Source: Epsilonproteobacteria bacterium UBA4036 (GTDB lineage Bacteria; Campylobacterota; Campylobacteria; Campylobacterales; Arcobacteraceae). Taken from it: a DNA stretch of 64,000 nucleotides. Shown in pieces: positions 18,780-63,360 of this stretch. The DNA lies in the NCBI GenBank assembly GCA_002382325.1, contig DGAG01000007.1, positions 200,235 to 264,234 of the forward strand. Reading direction: 5' to 3'. The translations under genes and the position numbers were made by a program. Position 1 is the first letter of the stretch; each line of letters starts with the position of its first letter. The notes under the pieces are model-generated. The model did not search any database and had not been told where the DNA came from. It worked only from the letters and a program-made list of their open reading frames with translations.

Positions 18780-18782
18780 ACC

Positions 18783-36566: not shown

Positions 36567-37328
36567 TTATGCCAATCGATTTAAAGAGGTCAATAATAAA
36601 AAAGTCCCCAATATTAATATTAAAATAGCGCCAATAATTTCTAAGAAATAGCTTTTTTCTCCTAAAAAACCCGATGCCTTTTTATTAAGTGCAATAGCAA
36701 ATATTCCTGCTATTGATATGGTAAGTCCCATTCCTATACTCATAGCAATTGCACTAAAAATTCCTAACGTAAAATGTCCAAGCATAATACAAAAAAGAAC
36801 TATTGTCATCACACCAGGACAAGGAATAATCCCTGCACTAATACTTAAAATATAAATATTTTTATCCTTTTGTGGGAGAGATTGTTCTTTGTTTTTTTTG
36901 TGTTTATATGCATGCCATATCAAATAAAGCCCAATGATAATAATTAATACGGCACTTAAAACCATGACGCTTTCACTTAATTCGTTAAAATGTTTTCTGA
37001 ACATTGTTTTAAATAAGAAAAAGATACCAAAAGTAATAAATACGGCTGATATGGCATGAACAATTGCAATTAAAAATCCCACTTTAAATACTTTTTTATA
37101 ATTGTTTTTATTCGATGCAAAATAAAAGGCAACCAAAGACTTCCCATGTCCTGGTCCTGCGGCATGAACAAGACCATAAATAAAAGCTATTCCAAGCAAA
37201 GACAATGAAAGTGTCATTGAGTTTTCATTATTAATATTTTTTATAGAACTTGCTATTAGTTTATTAAAAGCATATTGATATTCAACGAGTACATGTAAAA
37301 AATTATTATAAACTTCGATTAACATCAT
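36567..37328 (-). CDS. NicO/RcnA-type nickel/cobalt (divalent metal) transporter family membrane protein
   Basis: 253 aa multi-pass protein with VHAAGPGHGKS and a His/Lys-rich cytoplasmic loop HAYKHKKNKE. It overlaps the upstream DUF1007-like gene by 4 nt. Confidence 0.78.
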   Translation of the reverse strand: MMLIEVYNNFLHVLVEYQYAFNKLIASSIKNINNENSMTLSLSLLGIAFIYGLVHAAGPGHGKSLVAFYFASNKNNYKKVFKVGFLIAIVHAISAVFITFGIFFLFKTMFRKHFNELSESVMVLSAVLIIIIGLYLIWHAYKHKKNKEQSLPQKDKNIYILSISAGIIPCPGVMTIVLFCIMLGHFTLGIFSAIAMSIGMGLTISIAGIFAIALNKKASGFLGEKSYFLEIIGAILILILGTFLLLTSLNRLA

Positions 37329-38939: not shown

Positions 38940-38978
38940 ATAAAGTTACGGTAAATGTAAAAATATTCTTGTTCATTC

Positions 38979-39797
38979 TCACTCACAGCTTTCGCTGTTT
39001 GCCAATCGTTTGAGTTCATCACAACTAAATCCTGCTTTTTTTCTGGCTTCAAAATTCAGCGATTGCTTTTTTTGAGTACTTCCAGGGTAAAACTCTTCTA
39101 AGAGTTTTAAGTAGGTTTGTTCGGGTTCAATTTGCTCTTCTTTACACGCATATTTAAACCATCGATCCCCTTTTTGAACATGTGTAATCTCTTCTTCCAA
39201 AATAATGTTTAACGCTTCTAAAATAGCATAATTTGTCTCATCGGGATTGGATTTAAGTTTTTCCATAATTTTAGGATTTTGATCCAAACCATTGGCTTCT
39301 AAATAGCGTGGGACAATTGCCATTCGACTCAAAAGAGTGGTGGTTTTTTTCATTGCTTCAAACAAATTGGTATGAACTTCAAAATCGCCATACTGGTATC
39401 CCAAACGATGTAAGAGCTTTTCACACATCTTAAAATGTCGAATTTCATCTTCGGCAACCTCAAGCCAATCTGCGTAATATTCAAAAGGCAAATTCATAAA
39501 GCGATACGCAGCATCCAAAGCCAAATCCACCGCACAATACTCAATATGGCATATGGTGTGCAATAACTTGGCTTTTCCTTCAACTGTATCAAAATATTTT
39601 CTTTGTTTTACCTCTTTGGGCAAAACAATTTTTAAAAAAGAGTCATAACTTGGTTTTTCTAAACCTAAAGGCAAATACTCTTTTTCAAATACGATTTCAT
39701 TGTTTAAAAATTGTGTGTAAAAATAAGTAAAGGTATCAAACTTTTTTTGTGGGTTTTCTTCAAACAAAATAGTTTCTAAAGTTTTAAAATAGTACAC
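38979..39797 (-). CDS. DUF455 ferritin-like di-iron family protein
   Basis: 272 aa with HIEYCAVDLALDA and EDEIRHF, LEANGLD and EEEITHV helices. It has a GTG start with AAAGAGG 6 nt upstream. Confidence 0.72.
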   Translation of the reverse strand: MYYFKTLETILFEENPQKKFDTFTYFYTQFLNNEIVFEKEYLPLGLEKPSYDSFLKIVLPKEVKQRKYFDTVEGKAKLLHTICHIEYCAVDLALDAAYRFMNLPFEYYADWLEVAEDEIRHFKMCEKLLHRLGYQYGDFEVHTNLFEAMKKTTTLLSRMAIVPRYLEANGLDQNPKIMEKLKSNPDETNYAILEALNIILEEEITHVQKGDRWFKYACKEEQIEPEQTYLKLLEEFYPGSTQKKQSLNFEARKKAGFSCDELKRLANSESCE

Positions 39798-39815
39798 TTA
39801 ATACCTCTTTGTTAT

Positions 39816-40081
39816 GGGCACCACTAAAAATTAGAACGCCTATAAACGCCAAAGGAGTGTTTCTAGGTTAAAGAGTTTTAAAGTAGGACTACTTTAGTAA
39901 TTCAAGTTAAAACTCTTTAAGATAGGAATACTCATTTGTCGCCCCAAGGGGTAGCACATTAAGGCACAATCTTTTAAAAAAAAGAGTCTCGAATTAGCTA
40001 CGGCTAGTCCTTCACCTCTTTTTTTTAAAACCTTATACCTTACTGTACTATTTATAGGTATTCTAATTTTTAGTGGTACCC
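39816..40081. repeat. 266-bp nested inverted-repeat element (candidate structured RNA or MITE-like element)
   Basis: The terminal inverted repeats are GGGCACCACTAAAAATTAGAA (39816-39836) and TTCTAATTTTTAGTGGTACCC (40061-40081), matching 20/21. After 2 mismatches they continue with 8 more matches. Inside are a perfect 14-bp repeat (39868-39881 / 39907-39920) and a perfect 15-bp repeat (39972-39986 / 40016-40030). Confidence 0.6.
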
Positions 40082-40085
40082 TTAA

Positions 40086-40118: not shown

Positions 40119-40712
40119 ATGGATATTAAAGTTAAGCCCATGGGCGATTATCAAACCAACTGCTATATTGTGAGCATTGAAAATAAAGATTTTATTATTG
40201 ACCCAGGAGTAAACGCTGTTTCATGGGTGAAACAAAATGTTAAAAATCCTGTCGCCATTTTTAACACACACGGACATTTTGACCATGTATGGAGCAATGC
40301 TGCTTTGCAAAAAGAGTTAAATCTTAAAATTTATTGCCCAAAAGAAGATGCTTTTATGTTACAAAATGACCCATTTGGTTTTGGGATGCCTTCAAGCATA
40401 CCTGATGTGCTTGTGCAACCCGATGAAGCATTTGATTTTGATGGCGTTAAAGTCAAATTTCATTTTTTCCCCGGGCACACTCCTGGTTGCAGCGCCATTG
40501 AAATCAACAATACTCTCTTTAGTGGGGATTTTATTTTTAATGGTTCCATTGGCAGAGTTGATTTTCCCTACTCCAGTCCTGATGATATGAAAAGCAGTTT
40601 ACGCAAAATTTTATCGTGGGATAAAGATATGGTTATTTACCCTGGACATGGCTTAAATACGAAGTTGTCACAGGAAAAGAACTCTTTAAATAACTGGTTA
40701 AATTATTTGTAA
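40119..40712 (+). CDS. MBL-fold metallo-hydrolase (glyoxalase II-like)
   Basis: 197 aa with NTHGHFDH, PGHTPG, GDFIF and YPGHG. Confidence 0.85.
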   Translation: MDIKVKPMGDYQTNCYIVSIENKDFIIDPGVNAVSWVKQNVKNPVAIFNTHGHFDHVWSNAALQKELNLKIYCPKEDAFMLQNDPFGFGMPSSIPDVLVQPDEAFDFDGVKVKFHFFPGHTPGCSAIEINNTLFSGDFIFNGSIGRVDFPYSSPDDMKSSLRKILSWDKDMVIYPGHGLNTKLSQEKNSLNNWLNYL

Positions 40713-44692: not shown

Positions 44693-47416
44693 TTGAAAAA
44701 AATCAATGATATACTTTTTTCATATTGGACAATGGCAATATTATTGGTCATTTTAGCCCTAGGTGCTGCTGTTGCAACCTTTATTGAAAATGACTATGGA
44801 ACTTCAACGGCCAGAGTTTTAGTTTACAATCATCTGTGGTATGAAACGGTGTTACTTTTAACCATCATTAACCTTTGTGGAGTTATGTACAGAACTTCCA
44901 TGTGGAAAAAACCTCCACGATTTTTATTTCACTTTGCTTTTGTGGTTATTTTATTGGGTTCAATTATTACTCGATATGTCGGCTATGAAGGTATCATGCA
45001 CATACGAGAAGGGCAAACTCAAAATCAAATGAGTTCTCTTGAACCTTATTTACAAGTAACGATTAATCATAAAGGGAAATCATATTATCAAGAGTTTCCT
45101 ATTGAGTTTTCAGCTTTAGGCAATGATTTCGATTTTAATGTTGAATTTGATGATAAAGTGTTAAATTTACACTACAAAGATTACGTCTTTGCCAAACAAG
45201 ACAAAGCAACAATGGGACTTTTAACCTTAAATGCCACTCTTGACAATGAAACCAAAGAGTACAAACTCCCAGGGCAAAGAGGACAACAAGGACTTGAACG
45301 AGGCAACAGCTTTGGTGATACCACCGTTTTAATCCAATACGGGTCAAAAACACTCACCCTTCCTTTTGCCATTCATCTGCGTGATTTTCAACTCGAACGA
45401 TACCCAGGCAGTATGTCACCCTCTTCTTATGCATCGGAAGTTACTGTTATAAAAGAGGATAAAGAACAATACGATTATCGAATTTTTATGAACAATACGC
45501 TTAATGAAGGTAACTTCTTGTTCTTCCAAAGTTCATACGACATGGACGAGTTAGGTACTGTTCTTTCTGTGAACAACGATCCGGGAAAATGGCCAACCTA
45601 TTTTGGATATTTTCTTTTAACTTTAGGATTAGTAATGAATTTTTTTGATAAAAAAAGCCGATTTTGGAAACTGACAAAATATTTAAAAGAGAAAAATATT
45701 GCGTCATTTATTTTAGCTATTGCCCTATTTTCTGGCATCAATAGCTATGCTAAAGAGTATGAGGATGTTCAAGAGTATGTTAAAGAGTTCAAAGCCTCTT
45801 CTGCATTAACGGCACAAAAGTTTGGAAACTTAGCTGTTCAAACTTCACAAGGACGAATGAAACCCATAGGGTCGTTAAACAAACAAATTTTAAATAAACT
45901 CAGTGGCAAAAATGAAATGTTTGGTATGGATTACAATCAAATTGTTTTGGGAATGCTCACACGTCCAGAGTATTGGCGGTTTGTTAAAATCATAAAAATC
46001 AAAACACCCAAACTCAAGCAGCTTATTGGTATTGATGAGAGTGAAAACTATATCTCTTTTTCCGATGTTTTTAAAGACGGAAAATATCTTTTAATTGACC
46101 AAATCAATGAAGCCAACCGAATCAACCCCAACCAAAGAGGAACTTTTGAAAAAGATTTAATCCAAGTGGATGAACGACTCAATATTGCCTATTTGGTTTA
46201 CAGCGGTGAATTATTTAAAATCTTTCCAAAACTTGAAGAGAACAATCACAAATGGTACACGCCTTTGTCGGCTATTCAAGAGTTTGAAAAGGACAATAAA
46301 ATGGCCGTTGAAACCATGACCAAAGGACTTATTAATTATACCATCGTAGAAAACTGGGAGATGGCAAATCAATTTTTAGATCATATTGCAAATTATCAAC
46401 AAAAAGTTGGGGCAAAAGTAATTCCTCATCAAACTCAAATGAAATATGAGTTGCTGTTTGACAAAATTGATGTTTTCCCAAAACTGACATTAGCCTATGT
46501 TTTTTCAGGGTTTATTTTATTTATTGTCGCTTTTGCTTCAGTTTTCAATGAAAAATTAAAATCACGAACGATTACTTATATTTTCTTTGCTGTCTTAGCC
46601 GTACTCTTTGCTGTACACACTTTTGGAATGGGCTTAAGATGGTATGTGAGTGGTCATGCTCCGTGGAGTGATACATATGAATCACTGCTTTATATTTCGT
46701 GGTCAGCCATTTTTGCAGGAGTGGTCTTTTTTAGAAAATCTCTATTGGCATTGAGTGCTTCGGTGATTGTGGCAGGGATTTTTATGTTTACCGCACACTT
46801 AAGCCATATTGACCCACAAATTACCAATTTAGTCCCCGTACTTAAATCATATTGGCTTACGATTCACGTTTCTATTTTAACTGGTTCATATGGATTTTTA
46901 GGGTTAGGTGCTATTTTAGGATTTATGGCAATGTTACTCTTTATTTTTAGATCACCTCAAAGAAAAAATATTGATGAAACCATTAAACACATCACCACCA
47001 TTAATGAAGTGTCGTTAATCATTGGTCTTGCTGCTTTAACCATTGGAAACTTCTTAGGGGGTGTTTGGGCAAATGAATCGTGGGGAAGATATTGGGGTTG
47101 GGATCCTAAAGAGACTTGGGCGTATGTGGCGATTGTAACGTATGTTTTAGTGTTACACTTACGACTCATTAAAGGACTTAACACCGCGTTTGTCTTTAGT
47201 GTGGCTTCACTGTTAGCCTTTTCAACAATTTTGATGACTTACTTTGGAGTAAACTTCTATTTATCAGGAATGCACTCTTACGCCACAGGAGACCCACTTC
47301 CTATTCCTACATGGGTGTATGTTTTAACCGTATTGGTGTTTGTAACTATTGCAGTTGCGTATAGAAAAAGAGATTTAAAAGACGGAGAGATTTGTACTGT
47401 ACCTAAAGGTGAGTAG
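44693..47416 (+). CDS. ccsBA: fused cytochrome c biogenesis protein CcsBA (ResB-like + CcsA)
   Basis: 907 aa with a TTG start. The ResB-like N-terminal half has FLFFQSSYD. The CcsA half has the WWD motif WGRYWGWDPKETW. Confidence 0.9.
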   Translation: MKKINDILFSYWTMAILLVILALGAAVATFIENDYGTSTARVLVYNHLWYETVLLLTIINLCGVMYRTSMWKKPPRFLFHFAFVVILLGSIITRYVGYEGIMHIREGQTQNQMSSLEPYLQVTINHKGKSYYQEFPIEFSALGNDFDFNVEFDDKVLNLHYKDYVFAKQDKATMGLLTLNATLDNETKEYKLPGQRGQQGLERGNSFGDTTVLIQYGSKTLTLPFAIHLRDFQLERYPGSMSPSSYASEVTVIKEDKEQYDYRIFMNNTLNEGNFLFFQSSYDMDELGTVLSVNNDPGKWPTYFGYFLLTLGLVMNFFDKKSRFWKLTKYLKEKNIASFILAIALFSGINSYAKEYEDVQEYVKEFKASSALTAQKFGNLAVQTSQGRMKPIGSLNKQILNKLSGKNEMFGMDYNQIVLGMLTRPEYWRFVKIIKIKTPKLKQLIGIDESENYISFSDVFKDGKYLLIDQINEANRINPNQRGTFEKDLIQVDERLNIAYLVYSGELFKIFPKLEENNHKWYTPLSAIQEFEKDNKMAVETMTKGLINYTIVENWEMANQFLDHIANYQQKVGAKVIPHQTQMKYELLFDKIDVFPKLTLAYVFSGFILFIVAFASVFNEKLKSRTITYIFFAVLAVLFAVHTFGMGLRWYVSGHAPWSDTYESLLYISWSAIFAGVVFFRKSLLALSASVIVAGIFMFTAHLSHIDPQITNLVPVLKSYWLTIHVSILTGSYGFLGLGAILGFMAMLLFIFRSPQRKNIDETIKHITTINEVSLIIGLAALTIGNFLGGVWANESWGRYWGWDPKETWAYVAIVTYVLVLHLRLIKGLNTAFVFSVASLLAFSTILMTYFGVNFYLSGMHSYATGDPLPIPTWVYVLTVLVFVTIAVAYRKRDLKDGEICTVPKGE

Positions 47417-47479
47417 TAAATGGTGAGTGGTGAGTAGTAATTTCCTCCTACCACTCACTTCTTACCTCTTACTTCTCAC
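47409..47479. repeat. heptamer-built imperfect palindrome, copy A
   Basis: Five in-phase heptamers are GTGAGTA GTAAATG GTGAGTG GTGAGTA GTAATTT. Five complementary NNNTYAC heptamers end at 47451, 47458, 47465, 47472 and 47479. My hand fold gives 24 Watson-Crick and 2 G-U pairs over 31 positions. Confidence 0.75.
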
Positions 47480-47822
47480 ATAATTGGATTTTATCTTCTT
47501 TCGTCGTTATCATACACAAAAACTCATATTCACTGCCATAACAGGCTTCATACATATGATTCACCCCTGCTGGAATATAGATAAAATCCCCTGCTTTGGC
47601 ATGATACTCTTCATTGCCCACAATCACTTTGGCTTCACCTTTTAAAACATATTGTTGATGTTGGATTTCATTGGTGTGATTGGGCATGGAACCCTCTTTG
47701 GCTAACGTTACTTTTCGTACGATAAAATCTTTGTCTTCTTTAGGTGTTAGCACCGCAATAGAAGCATTGACTGTTTTAGGAATACAACTTTTTTCAAAAT
47801 TATTTGAACTTTGGCAATACAT
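47469..47822 (-). CDS. cupin-domain protein
   Basis: 117 aa with GSMPNHTNEIQHQQYVLKGE and GDFIYIPAGVNHMYE. Confidence 0.75.
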   Translation of the reverse strand: MYCQSSNNFEKSCIPKTVNASIAVLTPKEDKDFIVRKVTLAKEGSMPNHTNEIQHQQYVLKGEAKVIVGNEEYHAKAGDFIYIPAGVNHMYEACYGSEYEFLCMITTKEDKIQLCEK

Positions 47823-47871
47823 AATTATCCTTTTGTTTTAATACAAAATCATAGTGCGTTTTAGCTAAATA

Positions 47872-48777
47872 TTAAATAATTCTCTCTTTCGTTTTTTCAC
47901 TGACCAGTTTATACGCAATTGCAAGTGCTACAATGACAATACCAATAATAAGTAAATCATCGGCTTTTTCTGAAGACAATGAATAAATCAATATTTTACG
48001 AATCAACGCTGCCATGGCTAAGGTTAAAAAAGCTTTTATGGCAAAGCCTTTGCCTTTTAAGTGTTCAATCTCTTCATTAATCAGCTCAATAGCCGCCCAA
48101 AGCACGAGTAAACTTCCCAAAACTGTTAAAATCCCTTTTTCAATGCCTATATCTGAAAAAAACAGCAAATAAATATCATACACAAAAAGCCCAATGGCAA
48201 AAAATGCCACCAATGCCAAAGCCCCAGCTAAAAAGAAGTTAGTATAAGAACTGAATTTTTTTAAAGAAGATAAAATGCTTTTTTCAATATGCGACAACGA
48301 CAAAAACTTACCCAACTCCTCTTCTCGGTAAGAACTCGTTAAAATATCCAAATTCATGTCAATAATCTTTTCAACCGCACGAATTTGTTTGACGTGTTGC
48401 TCTTTAGACTCAAAATTGTCTTCAATGCTTTGCAAAACAAATGTCCGAACAAACGTAAACGCAGAATTCACATAATGCGTAGGCAAACCAATTTTAACAT
48501 GCACTTCACCAATTTTATACAAAGAAGTAAAATAGACCATGTCATATTTGCCACAAAAAAGATTGATAAACCACTCTTTAAGTTTGAGTTGATGGTGCGC
48601 AATAATCTCTTTGTTTTTTAAAAATTGCGCTGTTTTCCCAAAGCCCCAAATATAATCATAAAATTCATCAATAAACTTATCAGAAAGTTCTATCATACGA
48701 GGTTGAAGTGCTTTTAAAATATCCGCTTCTTGAGATGTAAATTTGTAGTTAGTTTTTAATGAAGTGCATTCTTTCAT
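47872..48777 (-). CDS. protoglobin (globin-coupled-sensor type) domain fused to a PsiE-like 4-TM membrane domain
   Basis: The N-terminal ~150 aa (ADILKALQP...FYDYIWGFGKTAQFL...IGEVHVKIGLPTHYVNSAF) match the protoglobin sensor pattern. The C-terminal ~130 aa are hydrophobic with AAIELINEE and AALIRKILI blocks, which resemble PsiE. Confidence 0.65.
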   Translation of the reverse strand: MKECTSLKTNYKFTSQEADILKALQPRMIELSDKFIDEFYDYIWGFGKTAQFLKNKEIIAHHQLKLKEWFINLFCGKYDMVYFTSLYKIGEVHVKIGLPTHYVNSAFTFVRTFVLQSIEDNFESKEQHVKQIRAVEKIIDMNLDILTSSYREEELGKFLSLSHIEKSILSSLKKFSSYTNFFLAGALALVAFFAIGLFVYDIYLLFFSDIGIEKGILTVLGSLLVLWAAIELINEEIEHLKGKGFAIKAFLTLAMAALIRKILIYSLSSEKADDLLIIGIVIVALAIAYKLVSEKTKERII

Positions 48778-48956
48778 TTTAACCTCCTTATCTTTTATCG
48801 TATTGTAGCTTTCTAATTAAAGGTTTGCTTTGATTTAAAGCAATGTTTTGGTGTGAATGATGTGTAAAGTTTTTGGTGTTTTTTTGACATAGGTTTTGAG
48901 CTATGGGTAAATTCTTTGATTTTTTACTCATACGTTGTATCGAAAATATTTAACTA

Positions 48957-48985
48957 TTTCGACATATAAATTTTATATGTCGAAA
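48957..48985. repeat. perfect 14-1-14 palindrome TTTCGACATATAAA-T-TTTATATGTCGAAA
   Basis: I checked it base by base. Further TTCGACATAT-like half sites lie at 48997-49007 (forward) and 48938-48949 (inverted, imperfect). Confidence 0.7.
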
Positions 48986-49034
48986 ATCCTCTATTTTTTC
49001 GACATATCAAAAAAGTTCTAAATTTATAAAATAC

Positions 49035-49163
49035 TTACTTCATAGCACTATTTGAGATAATACGAGCCACACCGTTTAAGTTTGCTAAAACCCTATTTGC
49101 AGATATTGCTTTTTTTAAGACTTTTTGAGTTTCGATTTGGTGGGTTAATAGTAGGTTCTTCAT
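49035..49163 (-). pseudogene. truncated Fic-family N-terminal fragment (42 codons)
   Basis: My translation is MKNLLLTHQIETQKVLKKAISANRVLANLNGVARIISNSAMK then a stop. The IET..VLK....A.R.LA.L.G pattern matches the Fic_N region, and I found no continuation in any frame downstream. The ATG lies 1 nt after the DUF4435 gene stop. Confidence 0.45.
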
Positions 49164-49164
49164 T

Positions 49165-50133
49165 TCATGCAACTTTTAAATATTTATCCAAAAATTCTAT
49201 TAAACAATTTGGAGTATTTGAATATTGAGCTAATACTGAAATCGAATCTTCTAATTTAAAAGACAAATTACACTTATATTTTTTTGTCAATATCTTTGGT
49301 TCTTTAGCAGTTGCTTCCTCCTTTAGTCTTTTTAGAAAGTCAATGAAAAATTTTAATTCAAACTTACCTCTGAACATACAAGCTTTATTAAAATCACTTG
49401 AATTAAATAATACTAATTTTTTCTCTAATAAATCATCTGTAATTTTTGGTGCATCTTTAAATAAAGTATTCTCAAAAATATCTTTATTCTTCAAATCATC
49501 AAAAATATTAGCTCTTAAATTTAAATCTACATCGAACATATTCTCATTGTTCTTAAAATAATTTTTCAGAACCTCATTAATATCCAATCTTGTACTCGTA
49601 TTTGTTTCTATTCTTATATCATATTGACAAGATAACCAAGCATTTAAGAACAATAATTCATCATGATAATTCGTTAATAATGTAGTATATAAATCTAATA
49701 TTTTAATGAAATTCTCATCTTTCTCTTTCATATTAAATTCACTATTCAAAATTCTTTTTAAAGTATCTTTTGTTGAATAAAAATTCTCTATTGAATAACA
49801 AGGAGTAACATATAGTTTATTCTCTACTTTATCATCAGTATAATCTTTATCTATAAAAAATAATGCTTTAGCTTTATCGTATTCCTTTCGATTTTTAATT
49901 AACTCTTTTACCTTTAAAACTAAATCTCGTCCTCCACATGTAAAATCTTGAAATTCTTTTTCGTATTTTATTGTGACTCTAGTACCATAATATTTTTTGT
50001 CTTCATCCCCTTCAAAAAAGCAGTACACCATGTCTGGATTAGTTTTGGAATATGCTCGTACAAAATTTGTATATGCAACATGTCCAGATTCAGCTTCCTC
50101 CAACATTAATGAGTATAAATCATTTTTACTCAT
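49165..50133 (-). CDS. DUF4435 (TOPRIM-like) protein, AriB-like
   Basis: 322 aa with VYCFFEGDEDKKYY, LFFIDKDYTD and CYSIENFY, which I recall as DUF4435 hallmarks. It overlaps the upstream ATPase gene by 8 nt. Confidence 0.78.
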   Translation of the reverse strand: MSKNDLYSLMLEEAESGHVAYTNFVRAYSKTNPDMVYCFFEGDEDKKYYGTRVTIKYEKEFQDFTCGGRDLVLKVKELIKNRKEYDKAKALFFIDKDYTDDKVENKLYVTPCYSIENFYSTKDTLKRILNSEFNMKEKDENFIKILDLYTTLLTNYHDELLFLNAWLSCQYDIRIETNTSTRLDINEVLKNYFKNNENMFDVDLNLRANIFDDLKNKDIFENTLFKDAPKITDDLLEKKLVLFNSSDFNKACMFRGKFELKFFIDFLKRLKEEATAKEPKILTKKYKCNLSFKLEDSISVLAQYSNTPNCLIEFLDKYLKVA

Positions 50134-51508
50134 TTTTACTATCCATATAAATATTAATACCTACTGCATATTTTTCCAATTCATTTTTAAAAATAAATGG
50201 AGAATGTGTTACAGCTAGTAAAAACTTACATTTTTCAGAATTCATAATATCAGGCAATAAGCGTTTTTGCCACGGTAATGATAATGAAAGTTCTGGTTCA
50301 TCAAATAAAACTATTAAATTTTCTGTTTTTTCTAAATATATTTTTGAGAATATTGAGATAATCTGTTTTTCCCCAGAAGATAATTTATTTATTTCAACTT
50401 TTTCATCAGTACCATCTCTGTAAATGTCTAAATCAACAGAACTTTCATCGTATCTAAATTGTTTATCCACTAAATACTCATTACATACATCACGAAAATT
50501 TTTTATCTTATCATCAAGATGTTTATGTTCATTATAAATATCAATTAATTGAAAGATAAATGAAACCAAATCTTTTCTTTCTTTTAATTTCGCTTTATTT
50601 TTTAGTAATTTTAAAATACCATCTTTATCTTTTTGTGGAATATTATCTCCAACTCTATGTAAAATAATTTTGATTGTATTTTCATCTAGCTCTTCAATTT
50701 CACTATCTTCAATTTTTCTAAAACCATTTAAAAATAGGGATAGCATTTGCCCTGTTAACTTTGAAAAACCAGTAATTGTAGATTTCTCAATTTCTTGCTC
50801 AACAGTAATGATTTTTTTTCTTACATCCTCCATACCGAAATGAATTAATGTATCATCATTAACTTCTAAATCTTCTTCTAATTCTCTATAATAACTTCTA
50901 CTGTCATTACGGTGTATAATTCTTTCTTTAAAACTACCTAAATTTTTTAAATCTTCTTCAACTCTTCTATAAGTAGGTAAATATAGTATTGAAAAATTCA
51001 AATCTTGCTTGATTCTTTCTAATTTATCAAATACATCAAAACTAGGTTTTTCTTTTATATATTTAAAAATTTCTCGAGTCATTATTTCGATTGGTGCAAA
51101 TCTTCTTATTGCGTTTTTTTCAATAAATTCAGCAATAGTTTTTGATACTTTAGAATTAAAGCTATCATAATTATCAAATTGTAATTGATTTAAATTTTCT
51201 AATTGAGTTAAAATACTTAAAGGAATTCTCCTATTGTTGTTATTATTATTTTCTTGGTAAGTTACATAACTTTCTAATTCAAATTTCGAAAATTGTATTT
51301 TCTCTTTATTCCCAAAAATAACCTCTATTGCCTCGAATTCAATATTTGAAAGCTTCTTATATTTTTCATTTAAAAGATAATATAGTGAATTTAAAATAGT
51401 TGTTTTACCAAAACCATTTTCACCTATTAATATTTTCACATTATCTTCAAAATTAATGTCAACATTTCTAAAACCAAAAAGCCCAGTTATTTTAAATCTT
51501 TTTATCAT
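50126..51508 (-). CDS. ABC/SMC-like ATPase with inserted helical domain, AriA-like
   Basis: 460 aa with Walker A GENGFGKTT, Q-loop-like YLPTYRR, signature LSSGEKQ, Walker B LIVLFDEPELSLS and H-loop AVTHSP. RBS AAGGAAA lies upstream. Confidence 0.78.
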   Translation of the reverse strand: MIKRFKITGLFGFRNVDINFEDNVKILIGENGFGKTTILNSLYYLLNEKYKKLSNIEFEAIEVIFGNKEKIQFSKFELESYVTYQENNNNNNRRIPLSILTQLENLNQLQFDNYDSFNSKVSKTIAEFIEKNAIRRFAPIEIMTREIFKYIKEKPSFDVFDKLERIKQDLNFSILYLPTYRRVEEDLKNLGSFKERIIHRNDSRSYYRELEEDLEVNDDTLIHFGMEDVRKKIITVEQEIEKSTITGFSKLTGQMLSLFLNGFRKIEDSEIEELDENTIKIILHRVGDNIPQKDKDGILKLLKNKAKLKERKDLVSFIFQLIDIYNEHKHLDDKIKNFRDVCNEYLVDKQFRYDESSVDLDIYRDGTDEKVEINKLSSGEKQIISIFSKIYLEKTENLIVLFDEPELSLSLPWQKRLLPDIMNSEKCKFLLAVTHSPFIFKNELEKYAVGINIYMDSKNE

Positions 51509-51739
51509 TCTTTATTTCCTTTTTTTTTAATTCAATTTTGAAATTCTTTTTTTAACTCTTATCCATCCCCACCACTCAAAATCCTCATTTGATTAATGGC
51601 AATTTTATTAAGCTTTTCTATCCTTTGACTTTTGGAAAATCTCTCAATTAAAAATTTCTTTTAAACCCATCAAATTCGACGGCTTTAAAATCAAGATTAT
51701 AAAAAATTTCCACATATTCTTACTCTTTTTCACTTCGTA

Positions 51740-52741
51740 TTATCTTAATCCCAAAACATCCCTCTCAATCTCTCTTTTCAACTCTTCTTCCGTTGGCAAA
51801 TAAAGCTGATATTTTGATACAAAGAGATTATCTTTGCTATTTATATGTGAGTATTTTACAATAGTTTCATCTTTATCTGTGCATAAAATTATTCCAATAG
51901 TTGGATTATCACTTTCATTCTTTTCCAAATCATCGTACATATTTACATACATATCAATTTGCCCAATATCTTGATGGGTTAGTTTTCCTATTTTCAAATC
52001 TATAAGTACAAAACATTTTAAAAGATAGTTATAAAAATCACTTGTTTGTGTTTTGATTCTTTTTTGTCGTGACACAAATGCAAAACCTCGACCTAGTTCC
52101 AGCAAAAATTCTTGTATTTTTTCTAGCAAGGCACTTTCAAGTTCATTTTCTCTGAATGATTTATTGTCTTTTAAATCTAAAAATTCCAATACATAAGGAT
52201 CTTTGATAATATCTTTTGCTGTAAGTTGTAGATTTTTTGTATTTTCTTTGGCTTCATCAATAACGGGCTGTTTTTCTTGACTTGATATAACTCTTTCATA
52301 ATAAAGTGAGTTTATTTGTCTTTCTAAAGCTCTAACACTCCAATTAGAAGCGATGGTTTCTTGTATATAATACTCTCTTGCTTGTTCGTTTTCAATTCTC
52401 ATGATAAGTCGATAATGACTCCAACTCAATTCGCTACACAGTGTGTAGCAATTTGAAAAGACTAAATAAAACTGTCTCATATTTCTAAGATTTTGAGGAG
52501 TAAATCCAGTACCAAAATCAACGGTGAGTTGCTTTGATAATTCACTTATAAGGTTTGAGCCATATTTTGCTTTTGTTTCCCCATGTTGTTCCACTTCTAC
52601 TATTTTTTTACCCACATTCCGATAGGCTTCCACCATAATAAAATTTACAGATTTATAGGCATTATCTCTTGCTGTTTGTAAGATAGATTTAATATCTTGA
52701 TAAAATTGGTTATTTGATTGTTTTACTGTTTCACTCATCAA
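51740..52741 (-). CDS. YhcG/DUF1016 PD-(D/E)xK nuclease-family protein
   Basis: The N-terminal part reads YQDIKSILQTARDNAYKSVNFIMVEAYRNVGKKIVE...NLRNMRQFYLVF. The C-terminal part reads GRGFAFVSRQKRI...CFVLIDLKIGKLTHQDIGQIDMYV. Confidence 0.82.
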   Translation of the reverse strand: MMSETVKQSNNQFYQDIKSILQTARDNAYKSVNFIMVEAYRNVGKKIVEVEQHGETKAKYGSNLISELSKQLTVDFGTGFTPQNLRNMRQFYLVFSNCYTLCSELSWSHYRLIMRIENEQAREYYIQETIASNWSVRALERQINSLYYERVISSQEKQPVIDEAKENTKNLQLTAKDIIKDPYVLEFLDLKDNKSFRENELESALLEKIQEFLLELGRGFAFVSRQKRIKTQTSDFYNYLLKCFVLIDLKIGKLTHQDIGQIDMYVNMYDDLEKNESDNPTIGIILCTDKDETIVKYSHINSKDNLFVSKYQLYLPTEEELKREIERDVLGLR

Positions 52742-52835
52742 TAAATCTCACTTTATTTTACATTCGTAACATTGTAACCAAGAAAAGTTTATTTTAAGAT
52801 TTAGAGTATCGGTATTTAGGGAAGTTTAAATGTGG

Positions 52836-52867
52836 GCTGTAAAGAGAAATTACTTTCTCTTTACAGC
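52836..52867 (-). terminator. hairpin at the end of lpd
   Basis: The stem is GCTGTAAAGAGAAA / TTTCTCTTTACAGC (perfect 14 bp) with a 4-nt loop that contains the lpd stop codon. No clear U-run follows. Confidence 0.5.
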
Positions 52868-54283
52868 TTTAGCGTTAGGTAAATCAGTGATTGTACCTTC
52901 AAAAATTTCGGCTGCCATTCCTACAGATTCATGTAAAGTTGGGTGAGCGTGGATTGTTAAAGCAATGTCTTCTGCATCACAATCCATCTCAAGAGCAAGT
53001 GAGATTTCTCCTAAGAGTTCTCCTGCATTATCACCCACAATTGCACCACCTATGAGTTGGTGTGTCTCTTTGTTGAAAATAAGTTTGGTCATACCACTGC
53101 TTGAAACATCACTGGCAATGGCTCGTCCTGATGCACTCCAAGGAAAAGTTGAGACTTCATAATCAATCCCTGCTTCTTTGGCTTGAGTTTCAGTCATTCC
53201 TGCCCATGCAATTTCAGGGAAGGTATAAGCAATCGATGGGATTTGTTTTGGCTCAAAAAAGGCTTTGTGTCCTGCAATGACTTCAGCAGCCACATGACCT
53301 TCATGTACAGCTTTATGGGCAAGCATGGGTTGTCCTACGATATCACCAATGGCAAAAATATGAGGAACGTTTGTTTTCATTTGATTATCCACTTTGATAA
53401 TTCCATACTCATCGACATTTACGCCACATTTATCCAATCCCAGTTTTAAACCATTGGCACTTCGTCCCATAGCCACTAAAACAGCATCATAAACAACTGC
53501 ACCCTCAGGCGCACTTTTACCTTTAAACTCAACATACACACCATCTTGTTTTGGGATAATTGATTGAGCTTGGGTTTCAAACATGATGTTAAATCGTTTG
53601 GCATTGGCTTTGGTATAAAGTTTTACAATATCGCTGTCAGTTCCAGACATTAATTGTTTTCCACGTACGACAAAATCTACTTCTGAACCCAATTTCTGAT
53701 ACACAGTACCCATTTCAAGACCAATAATTCCACCACCCATAACAAGAAGTTTTTTAGGCACTTCTTTAACTTCTAAAGCATTTGTCGAATCCCAAATTCT
53801 TGGGTCTTCGTGTGGTATAAAAGACATTTTACTGCTTTGGCTTCCAGCAGCAATAATACAATTATCAAAGCTGACTTTGGTTTGTTCATCACTGTTTGTA
53901 TGGTTTACTATTACAGAGTGGTCATCAAGAAAAGTTGCCGTTCCTTGTATTACTGTAACTTTTCTCATTTTAGCCATGGCACTTAAGCCATCAGTGAGTC
54001 TTTTAACTACACCACTTTTGTATGCGGCTACTTTAGAGATATCTACAGTTGGTTTTCCAAAGCTTACACCTGCATGTTCAATGTGTTCTGCTTCTTCAAT
54101 CACTTTTGCTACGTGTAACAACGCTTTTGAAGGGATACATCCCACATTTAAGCACACCCCACCTAATGTAGGATGTCGCTCAACTAAAACCGTATCTAAA
54201 CCTAAGTCTGCACATCTAAAAGCAGCTGAGTAACCCCCAGGACCTGCTCCTATAACTAATACTTGACCTTTTACTTCATTCAT
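52850..54283 (-). CDS. lpdA: dihydrolipoyl dehydrogenase (E3)
   Basis: It has GAGPGGY, redox-active GGVCLNVGCIPSK and HAHPTLHE. I chose ATG 54283, which has AAGGTGG 5 nt upstream, rather than the GTG at 54292. Confidence 0.93.
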   Translation of the reverse strand: MNEVKGQVLVIGAGPGGYSAAFRCADLGLDTVLVERHPTLGGVCLNVGCIPSKALLHVAKVIEEAEHIEHAGVSFGKPTVDISKVAAYKSGVVKRLTDGLSAMAKMRKVTVIQGTATFLDDHSVIVNHTNSDEQTKVSFDNCIIAAGSQSSKMSFIPHEDPRIWDSTNALEVKEVPKKLLVMGGGIIGLEMGTVYQKLGSEVDFVVRGKQLMSGTDSDIVKLYTKANAKRFNIMFETQAQSIIPKQDGVYVEFKGKSAPEGAVVYDAVLVAMGRSANGLKLGLDKCGVNVDEYGIIKVDNQMKTNVPHIFAIGDIVGQPMLAHKAVHEGHVAAEVIAGHKAFFEPKQIPSIAYTFPEIAWAGMTETQAKEAGIDYEVSTFPWSASGRAIASDVSSSGMTKLIFNKETHQLIGGAIVGDNAGELLGEISLALEMDCDAEDIALTIHAHPTLHESVGMAAEIFEGTITDLPNAKAVKRK

Positions 54284-54293
54284 AATTGCCACC

Positions 54294-56024
54294 TTACAAA
54301 TTCAATAATCGAATATCGCCAAGCAATTTCGATAAAGTTGTTGTAAATCTTGCTCCATCTGCACCATCAATAACTTTATGGTCATATGATAAGCTTAATG
54401 GCAACATGAGTGCTGGTTCAAATGTTTCACCGTTCCACTTTGGTTTAAATTCAGATTTTGACAATCCTAAAATCGCAACTTCAGGTGCATTAATAATTGG
54501 CGTAAAATATGTACCACCAATACCACCTAAACTAGAAATGGTAAAACAAGCCCCTTGCATATCGGGTGCTTTTAATTTTCCCTCTCGTGCTTTCGTTGAG
54601 AGTTCTGCTAATTCTATAGCAATCTCTTTAAACCCTTTTTTATCAGCATCTTTAATAACGGGTACAACCAATCCATTGGGTGTATCAACTGCCACTCCAA
54701 TATGGAAATATTTTTTCATAATCAAGCTTTGAGCATCACTGCTTAATGATGCGTTAAATTTAGGATGAATTGCTAAGGCTTTTGCTACAGCTTTTACCAC
54801 AAACACCAACGGTGAAAGTTTAAAATCTTTGGCAAGTGCATTTTGCTCTTTTCTAAATTTTTCCAATTCTGTAATATCGGCTTCATCAAATTGCGTTACA
54901 TGTGGCATAGCCAACCAATTTCGGTGTAAGCTCGGACCTGAAATTTTTTGAATTCGACTTAACTCTACGGTTTCAATTGAACCAAACTGGCTAAAGTCTA
55001 TCTCTTTGGCTTCGGGTAAATTAAAGCCAAATCCTACACCCGTAGCTGCACTGGCTGGTTTGTTCAGTTGTTCTTTAACGTACGCTTTAATATCTTCTTT
55101 TAAGATTCTATTTTTTCGTCCGCTTCCTTTGACAAAACCTAAATCTACGCCAAATTCTCGTGCGAGTTTTCGCACTGACGGAGAAGCATACACTTTACTG
55201 GCTTTTTTACTTAAAACACTCGTTTCTTCTTTGTCAATACTGATTGATACCGCTTCTTGAAGTGTGGTTGGTGATTTTTTAACTTCTTCTTTGACAGGAG
55301 CTTCAACACTAGCAGGTGTTGGAATTTTATTTTCCATAACAACCGTTTTGACTATTTTTGCAATCAAATCACCGCTGTTGACTTTCATACCTGCTTCAAC
55401 AAACAGTTCAATCACTTCACCAGCAAATGGTGCGGGAACATCCATAGAGGCTTTTTCTGTCTCTAGCGTAATCAAACCATCTTCATATTCAACCGTATCC
55501 CCTACTTTAACCATAACATCAATCAAATCAACGTCTTTATCGGCTCCTAAGTCTGGTACATGCACTTCTTCAACGACAGAACAAATTGTTTGTTCATTAA
55601 CAAACTGGCAAGAAACTTGAGCATTGGCTGCTGAAATGGCTTGAAGTTCTGCTTCTGCCGCTTTGACATCCATTGGTGCAGATGTTTTCGCAACAGGAGT
55701 TTCTACGCTTATAGTAGGTGTTGAAATCTCTTTTGCAACCGCACTTTGAGTGCTTGCTTGTGCCACAGGAGCTTCTTGCACCTCTTGCGATTCAACTCGT
55801 GCAATCAAATCACCCGAATTGACTTTCATCCCTACTTTTAAAAATATCTCTTTAACTACTCCAGCGTGTGTTGTTGGAACATCCATAGAAGCTTTTTCTG
55901 TTTCAAGTGTAATTAACCCGTCTTCAACTTCTACCACATCGCCAACATTTACCATCACCTCAATTAAATCGACGTCTTTATCCGCTCCTAAATCAGGAAT
56001 AAAAATATCATGAATTGTGCTCAT
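54294..56024 (-). CDS. aceF: dihydrolipoyllysine-residue acetyltransferase (E2) with two lipoyl domains
   Basis: Two LITLETEKASMDVP lipoyl motifs are followed by a peripheral-subunit-binding domain ASPSVRKLAREFGVDL. The catalytic domain has SLSYDHKVIDGA. Confidence 0.93.
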   Translation of the reverse strand: MSTIHDIFIPDLGADKDVDLIEVMVNVGDVVEVEDGLITLETEKASMDVPTTHAGVVKEIFLKVGMKVNSGDLIARVESQEVQEAPVAQASTQSAVAKEISTPTISVETPVAKTSAPMDVKAAEAELQAISAANAQVSCQFVNEQTICSVVEEVHVPDLGADKDVDLIDVMVKVGDTVEYEDGLITLETEKASMDVPAPFAGEVIELFVEAGMKVNSGDLIAKIVKTVVMENKIPTPASVEAPVKEEVKKSPTTLQEAVSISIDKEETSVLSKKASKVYASPSVRKLAREFGVDLGFVKGSGRKNRILKEDIKAYVKEQLNKPASAATGVGFGFNLPEAKEIDFSQFGSIETVELSRIQKISGPSLHRNWLAMPHVTQFDEADITELEKFRKEQNALAKDFKLSPLVFVVKAVAKALAIHPKFNASLSSDAQSLIMKKYFHIGVAVDTPNGLVVPVIKDADKKGFKEIAIELAELSTKAREGKLKAPDMQGACFTISSLGGIGGTYFTPIINAPEVAILGLSKSEFKPKWNGETFEPALMLPLSLSYDHKVIDGADGARFTTTLSKLLGDIRLLNL

Positions 56025-56034
56025 TCTTTACTCC

Positions 56035-58707: not shown

Positions 58708-59154
58708 ATAATTCCTTTTCAATAATATTTTCACTTTCGTTAAATACTTAATTAATATTTAACTATTGGAACTAACATAATACTATAAATAACTTATTGG
58801 GTTGTTATCTTTTTTGAGTAAAGTAAAATTATAAGAAAATAAAATTTTTATTATAAAATTTCACTAATTTTGATATTTTTCATAAAAAAATTAGATTTAT
58901 AAATTAACTAATATTTAAGTTATTACATAATTTTGAAATTACTTACTCCTATTTATGTCTCATTTTTTAGAGAATTGTACTACTTATGTACATTATATCA
59001 TATCTTGTTCATATCATTTAATCAAACCTTAATTAAAAATATTAGATTTTCCAATATTAGTATTAACTTAAGATAAAGGTTATAATTAGCCATCGAAAAT
59101 CAAAGTTTAAATTAAGTTAAACCCAAAAATCAACTTAAGGAAAAAAGAAGATAT

Positions 59155-60754: not shown

Positions 60755-60827
60755 TGAGTGGTGAGAGGTAAGAAGTAAATAGAAATTACCACTTATTACT
60801 ACTCACTTCTTACTTTTCACTTCTCAC
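60747..60827. repeat. heptamer-built imperfect palindrome, copy B
   Basis: Six in-phase heptamers are GTAAATA GTGAGTG GTGAGAG GTAAGAA GTAAATA GAAATTA. Six complementary heptamers end at 60792, 60799, 60806, 60813, 60820 and 60827. My hand fold gives 24 Watson-Crick and 4 G-U pairs over 36 positions. Both arms resemble copy A. Confidence 0.75.
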
Positions 60828-60872
60828 CCAAAATATGGTACAATCCCCCACTAAAAATTCAAAGGATAACTA

Positions 60873-62171: not shown

Positions 62172-62223
62172 CGAGTAACAAGGATATTATGATGAAAAAA
62201 ACTGGTCACTCGTCACTCTTTAC
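62154..62223. repeat. heptamer-built imperfect palindrome, copy C (CG-containing variant)
   Basis: The left arm is GTAACGA GTGAAAA GTAACGA GTAACAA. Right-arm heptamers end at 62202, 62209, 62216 and 62223. My hand fold gives 18 Watson-Crick pairs over 23 positions. The apical loop holds AAGGA and the ATGATG of the next gene. Confidence 0.7.
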
Positions 62224-63287: not shown

Positions 63288-63360
63288 TTTTTCTCCGTAT
63301 AATCTTAATCGATAAAATTATAGCAAAAAGCTCTTAAGGGCACCTCTCAAAGCCAAGAGA

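Follow-up and report, generated by a model that had tools for sequence, protein, structure and literature searches.

The window, the whole 64,000-nt stretch of Arcobacteraceae DNA analysed here, carries four repeat elements, A (47409-47479), B (60747-60827), C (62154-62223) and D (62891-62951), in each of which in-phase heptanucleotides (GTRANNN)n are followed by their complement (NNNTYAC)n. The elements and the genes that end in them are arranged as follows.

44693-47416, + strand: ccsBA fusion gene (ResB and Cytochrom_C_asm, 907 aa); TAG stop at 47414-47416, in A
47409-47443, + strand: left arm of A, five units (GTGAGTA, GTAAATG, GTGAGTG, GTGAGTA, GTAATTT); contains the last two ccsBA codons and the TAG stop
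47444-47451: apex or loop of A, CCTCCTAC, including a degenerate fifth right-arm unit
47452-47479, - strand: right arm of A, four units, reading GTGAGAA, GTAAGAG, GTAAGAA, GTGAGTG on the - strand; contains the last cupin codons and the TAA stop (complement of 47469-47471)
47469-47822, - strand: Cupin_2 protein gene (117 aa); stop in A
59870-60754, + strand: lipoyl synthase-like radical SAM gene (lipA, 294 aa); stop in B
60747-60781, + strand: left arm of B, five units; contains the lipA TAG (60752-60754)
60793-60827, - strand: right arm of B, five units
60873-62171, + strand: M20/M42 peptidase gene (432 aa), in the same direction as lipA and separated from it by B; TAA stop at 62169-62171, in C
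62154-62181, + strand: left arm of C, four units (GTAACGA, GTGAAAA, GTAACGA, GTAACAA); supplies the M20 peptidase with V-T-S-E-K and its TAA stop
62182-62202, + strand: loop of C, with the ATG (62189) of the DUF2461 gene
62189-62902, + strand: DUF2461 protein gene (237 aa); start in the loop of C, stop in D
62203-62223, - strand: right arm of C, three units; on the + strand it codes for the N-terminal DUF2461 residues TGHSSLF, which are absent from outgroups
62892-62912, + strand: left arm of D (GTGACAA, GTAACGT, GAAAATA), with only two good units; contains the DUF2461 TAA stop (62900-62902)
62917-62951, - strand: right arm of D, four units (62917-62944) and a partial unit; the 117-aa ORF ends here, with TGA (complement of 62934-62936)
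62934-63287, - strand: 117-aa ORF without a Pfam family; stop in D

Six CDS stops thus lie inside the elements, as the initial annotation had counted: those of ccsBA and the cupin gene in A, of lipA in B, of the M20 peptidase in C, and of DUF2461 and the 117-aa ORF in D. The loop of C also holds a Shine-Dalgarno-like AAGGA (62179-62183) ahead of the DUF2461 ATG.

A strict scan of the window for at least three in-phase GTRANNN units returns seven arrays, every one within A-D: the left arms of A, B and C on the + strand and the right arms of A, B, C and D on the - strand. First-order Markov random windows give 0.05 arrays per window. This bears out the in-phase 7-nt units and the related copies at B, C and D described earlier; the right arm of A, which had been credited with five units, has four, since 47445-47451 (CTCCTAC) ends in CTAC and not in TYAC. 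The hairpin pattern has no match in 100 dinucleotide shuffles, and TRF (period 7/14) and the in-phase scans concur in defining tandem 7-mer arrays. The search for further copies proposed in the initial annotation, when relaxed to allow two core mismatches, finds none in the window beyond A-D (0.37 expected); a fifth element, E, lies just past the window end, copies being counted within about 85 kb of sequence of the species. Positions G1, T2, R3 and A4 of the unit are strictly conserved and the remaining positions are free. GAG-type units are common to A and B and ACG-type units to C, D and E, and the left arm of C is identical to the right arm of D (62917-62944, read on the - strand) at 27 of 28 positions. 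No array of A-D contains a run of three G (units GTGAGTA, GTAACGA and similar).

The elements do fold. For A, the 24 Watson-Crick and 2 G-T pairs over 31 positions counted by hand are exact, and RNA folding gives -34.4 / -32.5 kcal/mol (z = -5.3 / -4.3) for A and -32.8 / -31.8 kcal/mol (z = -7.2 / -5.2) for B; the folds of C (-21.4 / -26.5 kcal/mol) and D (-15.6 / -22.7 kcal/mol) are weaker. Orientation is inward in all nine hairpin loci or alleles of the clade, so that each inverted pair could form an imperfect hairpin or cruciform of 25-31 bp. The slipped alternative pairings suggested previously are plausible, since in the seven hairpins of the clade analysed for register complementarity is owed largely to the shared core and not to one fixed register, and the arms change single units independently.

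Read inward, the left arm of A presents TGA (47410), TAG (47414), TAA (47417) and TGA (47424), covering all three frames, while outward reading meets no stop in either arm. This property follows from the presence of TRA every 7 nt: 7 is coprime to 3, and any entering frame is closed within three units. It is this arithmetic, closing the inward frames and leaving the outgoing arm open, that allows arrays to be tolerated on gene ends without harm to the proteins.

Comparison of orthologous junctions establishes that the arrays are derived. In outgroups (Marinarcus-like) the junctions are empty: the peptidase gene overlaps or directly adjoins that of DUF2461 (TAATG, TAAATG), and the convergent genes for DUF2461 and the 117-aa protein share 16 nt. 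The 26-70 nt of array found at these same junctions in the clade are therefore insertions, which entered the genome of one clade at tight 3′ gene boundaries and took the place of the 2-5 last codons, of the native stop and, at C, also of the following gene's start. Terminal residues are KKVG* and ESVK* in outgroups as against KKVTSEK* and EKVNSEK* in the clade. Between filled and empty junctions 12-16 nt of gene ends are replaced, with no target-site duplication. The six odd, strain-variable C-termini and the start codon in a hairpin loop are there because the arrays sit there.

The arrays change quickly, and strains of one species differ by whole units in either arm. Among strains with an identical 117-aa protein, D spans 93, 100 or 107 nt from one fixed anchor to the other, because the right arm has lost a unit or the left arm has gained one, and B spans 160 or 167 nt; the additional unit of B belongs to the left arm of one strain and to the right arm of another. 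Arm lengths across copies and relatives range from 2 to 11 units, and one relative (L132) has a perfect (TACTCAC)11 at the position of D. Point changes can preserve R, as in GTGACAA<->GTAACAA in D; the cupin stop is changed from TAA to TGA in strain L002, and strain L268 has an extra unit that leaves the protein unchanged and swaps TAA for TGA. In strain L269, B consists of ACG-type units between conserved flanks. L130, L132 and L133 have a stop-bearing array at the junction equivalent to C but lack the partner arm, and sister species have arrays of other unit composition at orthologous junctions, with or without a partner arm. In L132 a MazF/PemK cassette lies inside a duplicated copy of D. 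Gene ends in this genome are thus expected to shift in 7-nt steps, which matters for annotation.

Only a narrow clade of Arcobacteraceae has the family. The arrays are restricted to loci with a DUF2461 of at least 87% identity (L130-L133, L267-L270); 35 more distant relatives, together about 341 kb, yield one 3-unit array against about 0.3 expected by chance, and the 21-kb locus of Cand. Marinarcus PCE-1 yields none.

We consider it probable that the elements are heptanucleotide microsatellites (long simple-sequence repeats of the STRR type) with the unit GTRANNN, arranged as inverted pairs and derived at gene ends, with stops and any function being secondary. The arrays grow, shrink and become homogenised by replication slippage; template switching or gene conversion between nearby arrays may also contribute. 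Stop-carrying is mainly a consequence of array composition and of where arrays are tolerated, and does not speak for a dedicated stop device. Any residual role would most likely be exerted at the transcript level, by a 3′ stem-loop at transcription-unit ends that might act as a barrier to 3′ exonucleases or as an insulator between neighbour genes, as proposed for REP elements. REPs are proposed mRNA 3′ stabilisers, and reportedly can affect translation when near a stop codon.

The elements share the hallmarks of this kind of repeat, namely tandem 7-nt units beyond chance, whole-unit polymorphism between close strains and a sporadic, lineage-specific distribution. Cyanobacterial STRR are likewise said to be lineage-specific tandem heptanucleotides, intergenic and transcribed, some of them forming helices. 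They differ in their units (CCCCAGT, TTGGTCA, CAACAGT) and are described mainly as direct arrays; we know of no role for them in carrying CDS stops. Repeats of 7 nt are the commonest long simple repeats in prokaryotes, according to the summaries of Mrazek et al. 2007 given in PMC4679880 and PMC4692102. Although the initial annotation did not recognise a described repeat class, heptanucleotide long simple-sequence repeats, convergent inverted pairs by stop codons among them, were already known (PMC4692102, PMC4679880, PMC2700814). The elements do not form a new class but add a further case to a kind of bacterial microsatellite that is known, if poorly understood.

In Xanthomonas, (GGGAATC)n / (GGGANTN)n arrays are built of 7-nt units in tandem, most often four to an array (Rehm et al. 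2015, PMC4692102). There are 70-75 pairs per genome, convergent on opposite strands and able to form stem-loops, with the G-rich unit on the coding strand 0-50 bp away from the stop codon and sometimes overlapping it; they seldom lie between divergent genes, vary widely in length and sequence at junctions between close species, and are read by the authors as G-quadruplex formers (PMC4692102). A-D, E and other loci of the clade are convergent inverted arrays in this same sense (PMC4692102), and the unit skeleton G-N-G-A-N-T-N is common to both. Xanthomonas belongs, however, to another phylum, with a GC content of 65% against 33% here, and its GGGA core gives arrays with G-tracts and without stop codons, whereas the GTRA units close all frames and cannot form G-quadruplexes; in A-D there are no G-tracts (GGG/GGGG) in at least four consecutive units. 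G-quadruplexes are thus no common explanation for the inverted-heptamer architecture. TAACTGA repeats, known from marine Beggiatoaceae, cyanobacteria and Bacteroidetes, overlap the stop of the upstream gene in 13 cases (MacGregor 2015, PMC4679880), but have a single invariant unit, are direct apart from one inverted case in 170, and are placed mostly just upstream of start codons (PMC4679880). Geobacter metallireducens carries 4-5 tandem heptanucleotides (GGGACCG, MTYCTGA) at dozens of places (Aklujkar et al. 2009, PMC2700814); some classes are, as here, mostly paired on opposite strands, but they are annotated as putative regulatory RNA or regulator-binding sites and no link to stop codons is reported (PMC2700814). 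A literature search by literal unit strings gave nothing relevant, and a BLAST of element A against plasmids yielded no more than three matches, each of 30 nt (Phyllobacterium, Rhizobium, Streptomyces), of which two, on examination, are direct arrays of GTGAGTG-type units and not hairpins.

A wider pattern is found in viral and metagenomic contigs. Hairpins built of G-B-G-A-R-T-R heptamers occur there in contigs of bacteria and of Mu-like phages, with GC contents of 31-70%, and are strongly polar (at least 13- to 24-fold), with at least 120 against 9 for GTRA cores and at least 71 against 3 for GCRA (GCGA) cores. They lie at gene ends irrespective of stops in the core, and the GGRA set among them also includes the units GGGACCG/GGGACCA. 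In 141 one-sided contexts the sense RNA is less stable than the antisense by a mean of 1.8 kcal/mol (86 cases against 54), which argues against an optimised sense-RNA structure and leaves room for a DNA-level or neutral origin. Polarity and consensus are explained by neither stop codons, G-quadruplexes nor sense-RNA folding. Simple slippage is also insufficient for the strong inward polarity and common consensus in public contigs, and a part for some directional mechanism or factor remains. A tentative and rather doubtful extension would make the Arcobacteraceae elements one local form of a cross-phylum class of polar G-B-G-A-R-T-R palindromes that sit at or on stop codons and on either strand always begin with the purine-rich arm, reflecting an unrecognised conserved process that makes or reads heptads. 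If so, the candidates would be template switching that acts directionally at gene ends, or a nucleic-acid-binding protein that reads heptads; the excess of heptanucleotide repeats long noted in prokaryotic genomes could then rest on such a process. With a polarity and a unit skeleton common to disparate genomes, the old question of why 7-nt repeats are the most frequent long simple repeats of prokaryotes becomes testable. Megablast of three heptamer-rich viral contigs against phages and plasmids gave no match; judged from the translations, the longest ORFs in them resemble portal, tail and transposase proteins of Mu-like phages.

In the reading of the initial annotation, which we regard as unlikely, the elements are a module under selection that closes every reading frame and ends transcription arriving from either side between neighbouring genes. 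The hairpins are stable, stops in three frames are met inward on both strands and are used by six CDSs, and four of the five elements (A, B, D, E) lie at plausible transcription-unit ends, three of these being convergent junctions and the fourth lying upstream of a -10-like TGGTACAAT. The region shows no enrichment of canonical terminators (12 found against 8.9 expected), so that an alternative 3′-end signal could be useful. Like Rho-independent terminators, these are stem-loops directly 3′ of a CDS. An intrinsic terminator has, however, a short G+C-rich stem, a 3-8-nt loop and a U-run within about 8 nt, whereas A-D have AT-rich, mismatched stems of 25-31 bp and loops of 8-21 nt, and no T/U-tract follows any stem, the tails of the four being ATAATTGG, CCAAAATA, TGGTTTCT and CACGTTTC, without a T-run. 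None of A-D is among the 12 terminator-like sites called in a scan of 46500-64000, and only 14.5% of the tails of 149 related hairpins have at least 5 T in 8. Moreover, C is inserted between translationally coupled, formerly overlapping genes and holds the Shine-Dalgarno sequence and ATG of the next gene in its loop, single-arm alleles with the same stops exist in L130, L132 and L133, and arm lengths change independently. The elements are not canonical intrinsic terminators, and the bidirectional terminator is not supported. The all-frame stop is real on inward reading from both sides and serves six genes, but as a selected function it is placed in doubt by the GCGA-core hairpins of public contigs, which mostly lack it (all-frame stops in 22 of 162 arms) and equal the others in polarity and association with gene ends. 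The natural alleles of a single junction (hairpin, single arm, empty site) constitute a ready-made experiment on termination, mRNA stability and translational coupling.

It is less likely still that the arrays are a binding platform, on DNA or single-stranded RNA, for a protein whose monomers each read one heptad, with a cold-shock-domain protein or a global regulator as candidates, the hairpin being secondary. Such a reader would fit the strict conservation of G1, T2, R3 and A4 beside free positions, the recurrence of one consensus over the wide GC range of the public contigs, a strong polarity that stops do not explain and the absence of favoured sense-RNA folding; heptad binding by CspB is discussed in PMC4679880, and heptanucleotide sets of Geobacter, mostly paired, have been annotated as putative global regulator sites (PMC2700814). 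Against this, no candidate protein has been pinned down, neighbouring elements of one genome differ in their units (GAG-type and ACG-type), and copy number per arm drifts among strains with no sign of constraint.

We consider it very improbable that the elements are non-autonomous mobile DNA of REPIN-, MITE- or Correia-like type, copied to gene ends by a transposase. They are palindromic, dispersed and derived relative to outgroups, B has been swapped for another subtype between conserved flanks in one strain, and the duplicated copy of D in L132 bears its MazF/PemK cassette. As a weak point in favour, the right arms are TTAC/TCAC arrays, and TTAC is the target of IS608-type Y1 transposases. 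REP, BIME and REPIN sequences of Enterobacteria and Pseudomonas are likewise palindromes at gene 3′ ends, often in inverted pairs. They have, however, a conserved sequence of 20-40 nt with a 5′ GTAG and no internal 7-nt periodicity, are tied to RAYT transposases and are extragenic by definition; the elements described here have no conserved palindrome of fixed length (units differ between A/B and C/D, and alleles differ at one junction) and contain six stops, one start and the first residues of DUF2461. The REP-like label first given to them is not supported: conserved sequence, fixed length and target-site duplication are lacking, and variation in 7-nt steps is the behaviour of a microsatellite. 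Nor do the elements have terminal inverted repeats other than the array itself, or the target-site duplication with a clean empty site that marks MITEs, including Correia-like ones; orthologous junctions of sister species differ in unit composition and in the presence of a partner arm, and a true MITE in the window looks different. Finally, chance resemblance or an assembly artefact, suggested by nothing but the low-complexity look of the sequence, is already refuted by the seven arrays against 0.05 expected and by the recurrence of the same elements across nine or more independent assemblies (ENA, JGI, NCBI).

A splice-site or group II intron origin, considered for the resemblance to GTGAGT/GTAAGT, was dropped as intron features are absent. 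Rfam at the gathering threshold gave no match in the window or in L132/L268, a tRNA/tmRNA search found none, and an E-value Rfam search of the 39.8-40.1 kb region gave nothing meaningful. In this last region, at about 39811-40083, lies the genuine MITE of the window, with terminal inverted repeats, a TTA duplication and an exact empty site.

The heptamer-array observation made in the initial annotation is real and well made. A strict scan of the 64-kb window for three or more GTRANNN units in phase recovers seven arrays, all inside the four named elements, where first-order Markov random sequence of the same composition gives an expectation of 0.05 arrays per window. A relaxed scan of the window detected no further degenerate copy, and the paired pattern had 0 matches in 100 dinucleotide shuffles. 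The elements, together with a fifth (E) located beyond the right end of the window, are:

Heptamer elements, with array starts from the strict scan for the window copies
47409-47479, element A, between the ccsBA and cupin genes; arrays start at 47409 (+ strand) and 47479 (- strand)
60747-60827, element B, between lipA and the M20 peptidase gene; arrays start at 60747 (+) and 60827 (-)
62154-62223, element C, between the M20 peptidase and DUF2461 genes; arrays start at 62154 (+) and 62223 (-)
62891-62951, element D, between the DUF2461 gene and a 117-aa ORF; array starts at 62944 (-)
L268 5760-5824, element E, same species, about 4-5 kb past the window's right end

In each array G, T, R and A occupy positions 1-4 of the 7-nt unit and the complementary array lies 8-21 nt further on. 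Unit five in the right arm of A is degenerate, and the left arm of D includes only two good units. Recounting the pairing of A gives exactly the 24 Watson-Crick and 2 G-T pairs over 31 positions first counted by hand. The RNA folding energies of A and B lie around -32 to -34 kcal/mol (z scores from -4.3 to -7.2), and those of C and D are weaker (-15.6 to -26.5). All six CDS stops said to fall within the elements are indeed located there. Read inward, the left arm of A has stop codons in all three frames and, on the minus strand, every unit of its right arm carries TGA or TAA, since TRA fixed in a 7-nt unit reaches the three frames within three units; read outward, neither arm contains a stop. 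In C, the right arm is part of a coding sequence. Other short tandem repeats occur at 51490-51560 and 36592-36636 (period 12, 5.9 copies, and period 24, 1.9 copies, respectively); they are AT-rich and have no relation to the heptamer family.

Comparison of orthologous junctions, which the initial annotation had proposed, identifies the arrays as insertions relative to outgroups, where the sites are empty. The outgroup peptidase gene either overlaps or abuts that of DUF2461 (GTAAAATAATGC in L126, GGTTAAATGACA in L127), and the DUF2461 and 117-aa genes have a convergent overlap of 16 nt; the clade has a heptamer array of 26-70 nt filling these junctions. The peptidase C-terminus is ...KKVTSEK* or ...EKVNSEK* in the clade and ...KKVG* or ...ESVK* in the outgroups. 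DUF2461 and the 117-aa protein also end in altered residues, their length staying about the same. In the window and in the related locus L131, DUF2461 has a new start, whose AAGGA and ATG fall in the loop of C (19 nt), and seven additional N-terminal residues come from the right arm. The relatives L130, L132 and L133 carry only a direct array at junction C, without a partner arm. The array thus predates the hairpin, which is an overlay on it. In all three the DUF2461 start is a GTG within the last unit of the array, and in L130 and L133 the peptidase TAA stop lies in the third unit. Neither a target-site duplication nor element-specific ends were observed at the compared junctions.

Strains with an identical neighbouring 117-aa protein differ in the distance between fixed anchors around D, which is 93, 100 or 107 nt: one strain has lost a right-arm unit and another has gained a left-arm unit. 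For B the distance is 160 or 167 nt; the additional unit belongs to the left arm in one strain and to the right arm in another. R is retained through point changes (GTGACAA/GTAACAA). A unit gain in L268 leaves the protein identical and changes its stop from TAA to TGA, and the cupin stop in L002 is TGA. At junction C of L267, the second unit reads GTTAAAA in place of GTGAAAA; this single G-to-T change introduces an in-frame TAA ahead of the usual stop, and the peptidase is called at 427 aa instead of 429-432 aa, an example of how the arrays make C-termini labile. L132 includes a perfect (TACTCAC)11. Unit types go with neighbourhood: C, D and E are of the "ACG-type" and A and B of the "GAG-type", and the left arm of C is identical to the right arm of D at 27 of 28 positions. 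In strain L269, B is of the ACG-type with conserved flanks. Such array change is microsatellite behaviour, with slippage and probably local conversion, and not transposition.

The arrays are limited to close relatives: the conspecific contigs L001-L005 and L267-L270, L130 (peptidase segment 83% identical to the window) and L131-L133 (DUF2461 87-92%). Across the roughly 341 kb of 35 more distantly related loci there is one 3-unit array, which is the chance expectation. The 33% G+C of the window and its fused ccsBA of 907 aa pointed to Campylobacterota. Judged by the M20 peptidase among the species-representative genomes scanned, its nearest relatives are Candidatus Marinarcus sp. PCE-1, at 76% identity, and further MAGs of Arcobacteraceae. 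No array is present in the Marinarcus locus (21 kb). The very same proteins as in the window are also found on numerous metagenome and MAG contigs, and contigs of 0.2-1 Mb with these genes include ERZ18242839 NODE_7 (303 kb). Element E lies where a PAS histidine kinase gene (738 aa) and a DNA ligase gene (652 aa) converge; the stops of both genes are within its arms, and it has an ortholog at L132 6880-6937. In L003, where the gene order downstream of DUF455 is unlike that of the window, the DUF455 stop (TAG) lies within another heptamer element with a short right arm (18742-18790); no array is present at the DUF455 gene end of the window (38940-38978).

The architecture itself is not peculiar to this Arcobacteraceae clade. 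We scanned viral contigs for GTGANNN-GTRANNN-GTRANNN followed, after a gap of 0-30 nt, by three NNNTYAC units, and for variants of this pattern; the hairpin set comprises loci L006-L125, L188-L257 and L273-L376.

Matching stretches on viral contigs, by unit and order of the arrays
GTRA, inward: at least 120
GTRA, opposite order (TYAC arrays first): 9, of which at least two are from loci that have hairpins nearby
GCRA, inward: 71
GCRA, opposite order: 3
GGRA, inward: 51
GARA, inward: 55
CTRA, inward: 20

The purine-rich arm nearly always comes first (at least 120 against 9 for GTRA, 71 against 3 for GCRA). The inward GTRA scan covers at least 120 loci, with 149 distinct hairpins in those listed; these lie on contigs of 31 to 70% G+C, with medians of 4 units for the arm and about 13 nt for the gap separating the arrays. 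Some hairpin-bearing contigs encode Mu-like phage proteins, as read from translations. The units share the consensus G-B-G-A-R-T-R (GTGAATA/GTGAGTG, GCGAATG/GCGAGTA, GGGATTG/GGGAGTA), which the units of A and B also match. Arms with a 100-codon ORF ending inside them or no more than 30 nt upstream amount to 58% for the listed GTRA hairpins and 65% for GCRA, against about 12% for random positions, and a separate gene-end count on viral contigs gave the same picture. Only 22 of 162 GCRA arms carry stops in all three frames. Polarity and gene-end placement are thus independent of carrying stops, which weakens the all-frame translational stop as a target of selection: the property claimed in the initial annotation stands as a built-in one that makes the colonisation of gene termini tolerable, and any function as a stop device is putative. 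For 141 hairpins flanked by a gene on just one side, the antisense RNA was the more stable in 86 cases versus 54, by a mean of 1.8 kcal/mol, so optimisation of sense-RNA structure receives no support. The mechanism behind the palindrome polarity and the unit skeleton common to different phyla is the part of the finding that merits follow-up.

A role at transcript ends is plausible for A, B, D and E, given that A, D and E occupy convergent junctions and B lies upstream of a -10-like TGGTACAAT. Efficient bidirectional intrinsic termination appears unsupported, because none of the four elements A-D has a T-run 3′ of the stem or is called by a terminator scan, C was inserted between translationally coupled genes and there are alleles with a single arm. 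Canonical terminators seem scarce in this genome: 46500-64000 contains 12 intrinsic-terminator-like sites, no excess over the 8.9 +/- 3.1 of shuffled sequence. Among the 149 listed GTRA hairpins of viral contigs, only 14.5% of tails have at least five T in eight nucleotides. The proposal of a REP-like family is likewise unsupported, as the elements have neither target-site duplication nor ends of their own and their length steps are those of a microsatellite.

The classical case of heptanucleotide repeats is that of the cyanobacterial STRR repeats. In most prokaryotic genomes, the long simple-sequence repeats found most often are heptanucleotides, and their distribution is sporadic (Mrazek et al. 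2007, as cited in PMC4679880 and PMC4692102). Xanthomonas genomes each carry about 185 (GGGANTN)n arrays, mostly of four units, of which 70-75 pairs per genome lie on opposite strands in convergent orientation; they are rare between divergent genes and vary among close species (Rehm et al. 2015, PMC4692102). Their architecture is the same as that of the window elements, although those authors read theirs as G-quadruplex-forming. Tandem heptanucleotide sets, some mainly paired on opposite strands, occur in Geobacter (Aklujkar et al. 2009, PMC2700814), TAACTGA direct repeats provide stops in three frames and hence ORF ends (MacGregor 2015, PMC4679880), and the Helicobacter pylori heptanucleotide GTGATTA, as cited by Rehm et al. 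(PMC4692102), fits the GTRANNN pattern. The elements therefore do not constitute an undescribed repeat class, inverted heptanucleotide arrays at gene ends being known from Xanthomonas, and are best filed as a lineage-specific addition to this kind of microsatellite array. The open-access literature yielded no account of such arrays in Arcobacteraceae, nor of a GTRA hairpin variant that rewrites gene ends.

Two genes spanning about 840 bp have been inserted at element D in L132 (1455-2345), whose DUF2461 is 92% identical: one for a MazF/PemK toxin (115 aa, Pfam E = 3e-25) and an 82-aa partner ORF. They are flanked by a duplicated heptamer-rich segment (TTCAGAATTCAGTGTTCAGTACTCAGACAAAAGTCA...), which suggests that the arrays may act as hotspots of recombination or insertion. 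A MITE-like insertion lies in the following context:

38979..39797, - strand, DUF455 gene
about 39811-40083, MITE-like insertion, about 270 bp
40119..40712, + strand, Lactamase_B gene

It has terminal inverted repeats (GGGCACCACTAAAAATTAGAA / TTCTAATTTTTAGTGGTACCC), a TTA duplication, two internal hairpins with 35-nt arms and an exact empty site in L001 and L002 (CCTCTTTGTTA|ATATAATC), whereas the heptamer elements lack a target-site duplication and ends of their own; the two are unrelated. No Rfam match was obtained for it, and the L003 copy is short of an internal stretch, put at about 95 bp by a comparison of the two sequences by eye. Finally, the segment 48800-52800, between the pyruvate dehydrogenase E3 and protoglobin-domain genes, differs by strain in comparison with L001-L005, with AAA_15/AAA_21 ATPase and DUF4435, Fic, or YhcG/DUF1016 genes, and has the appearance of a variable island carrying defence-type genes.
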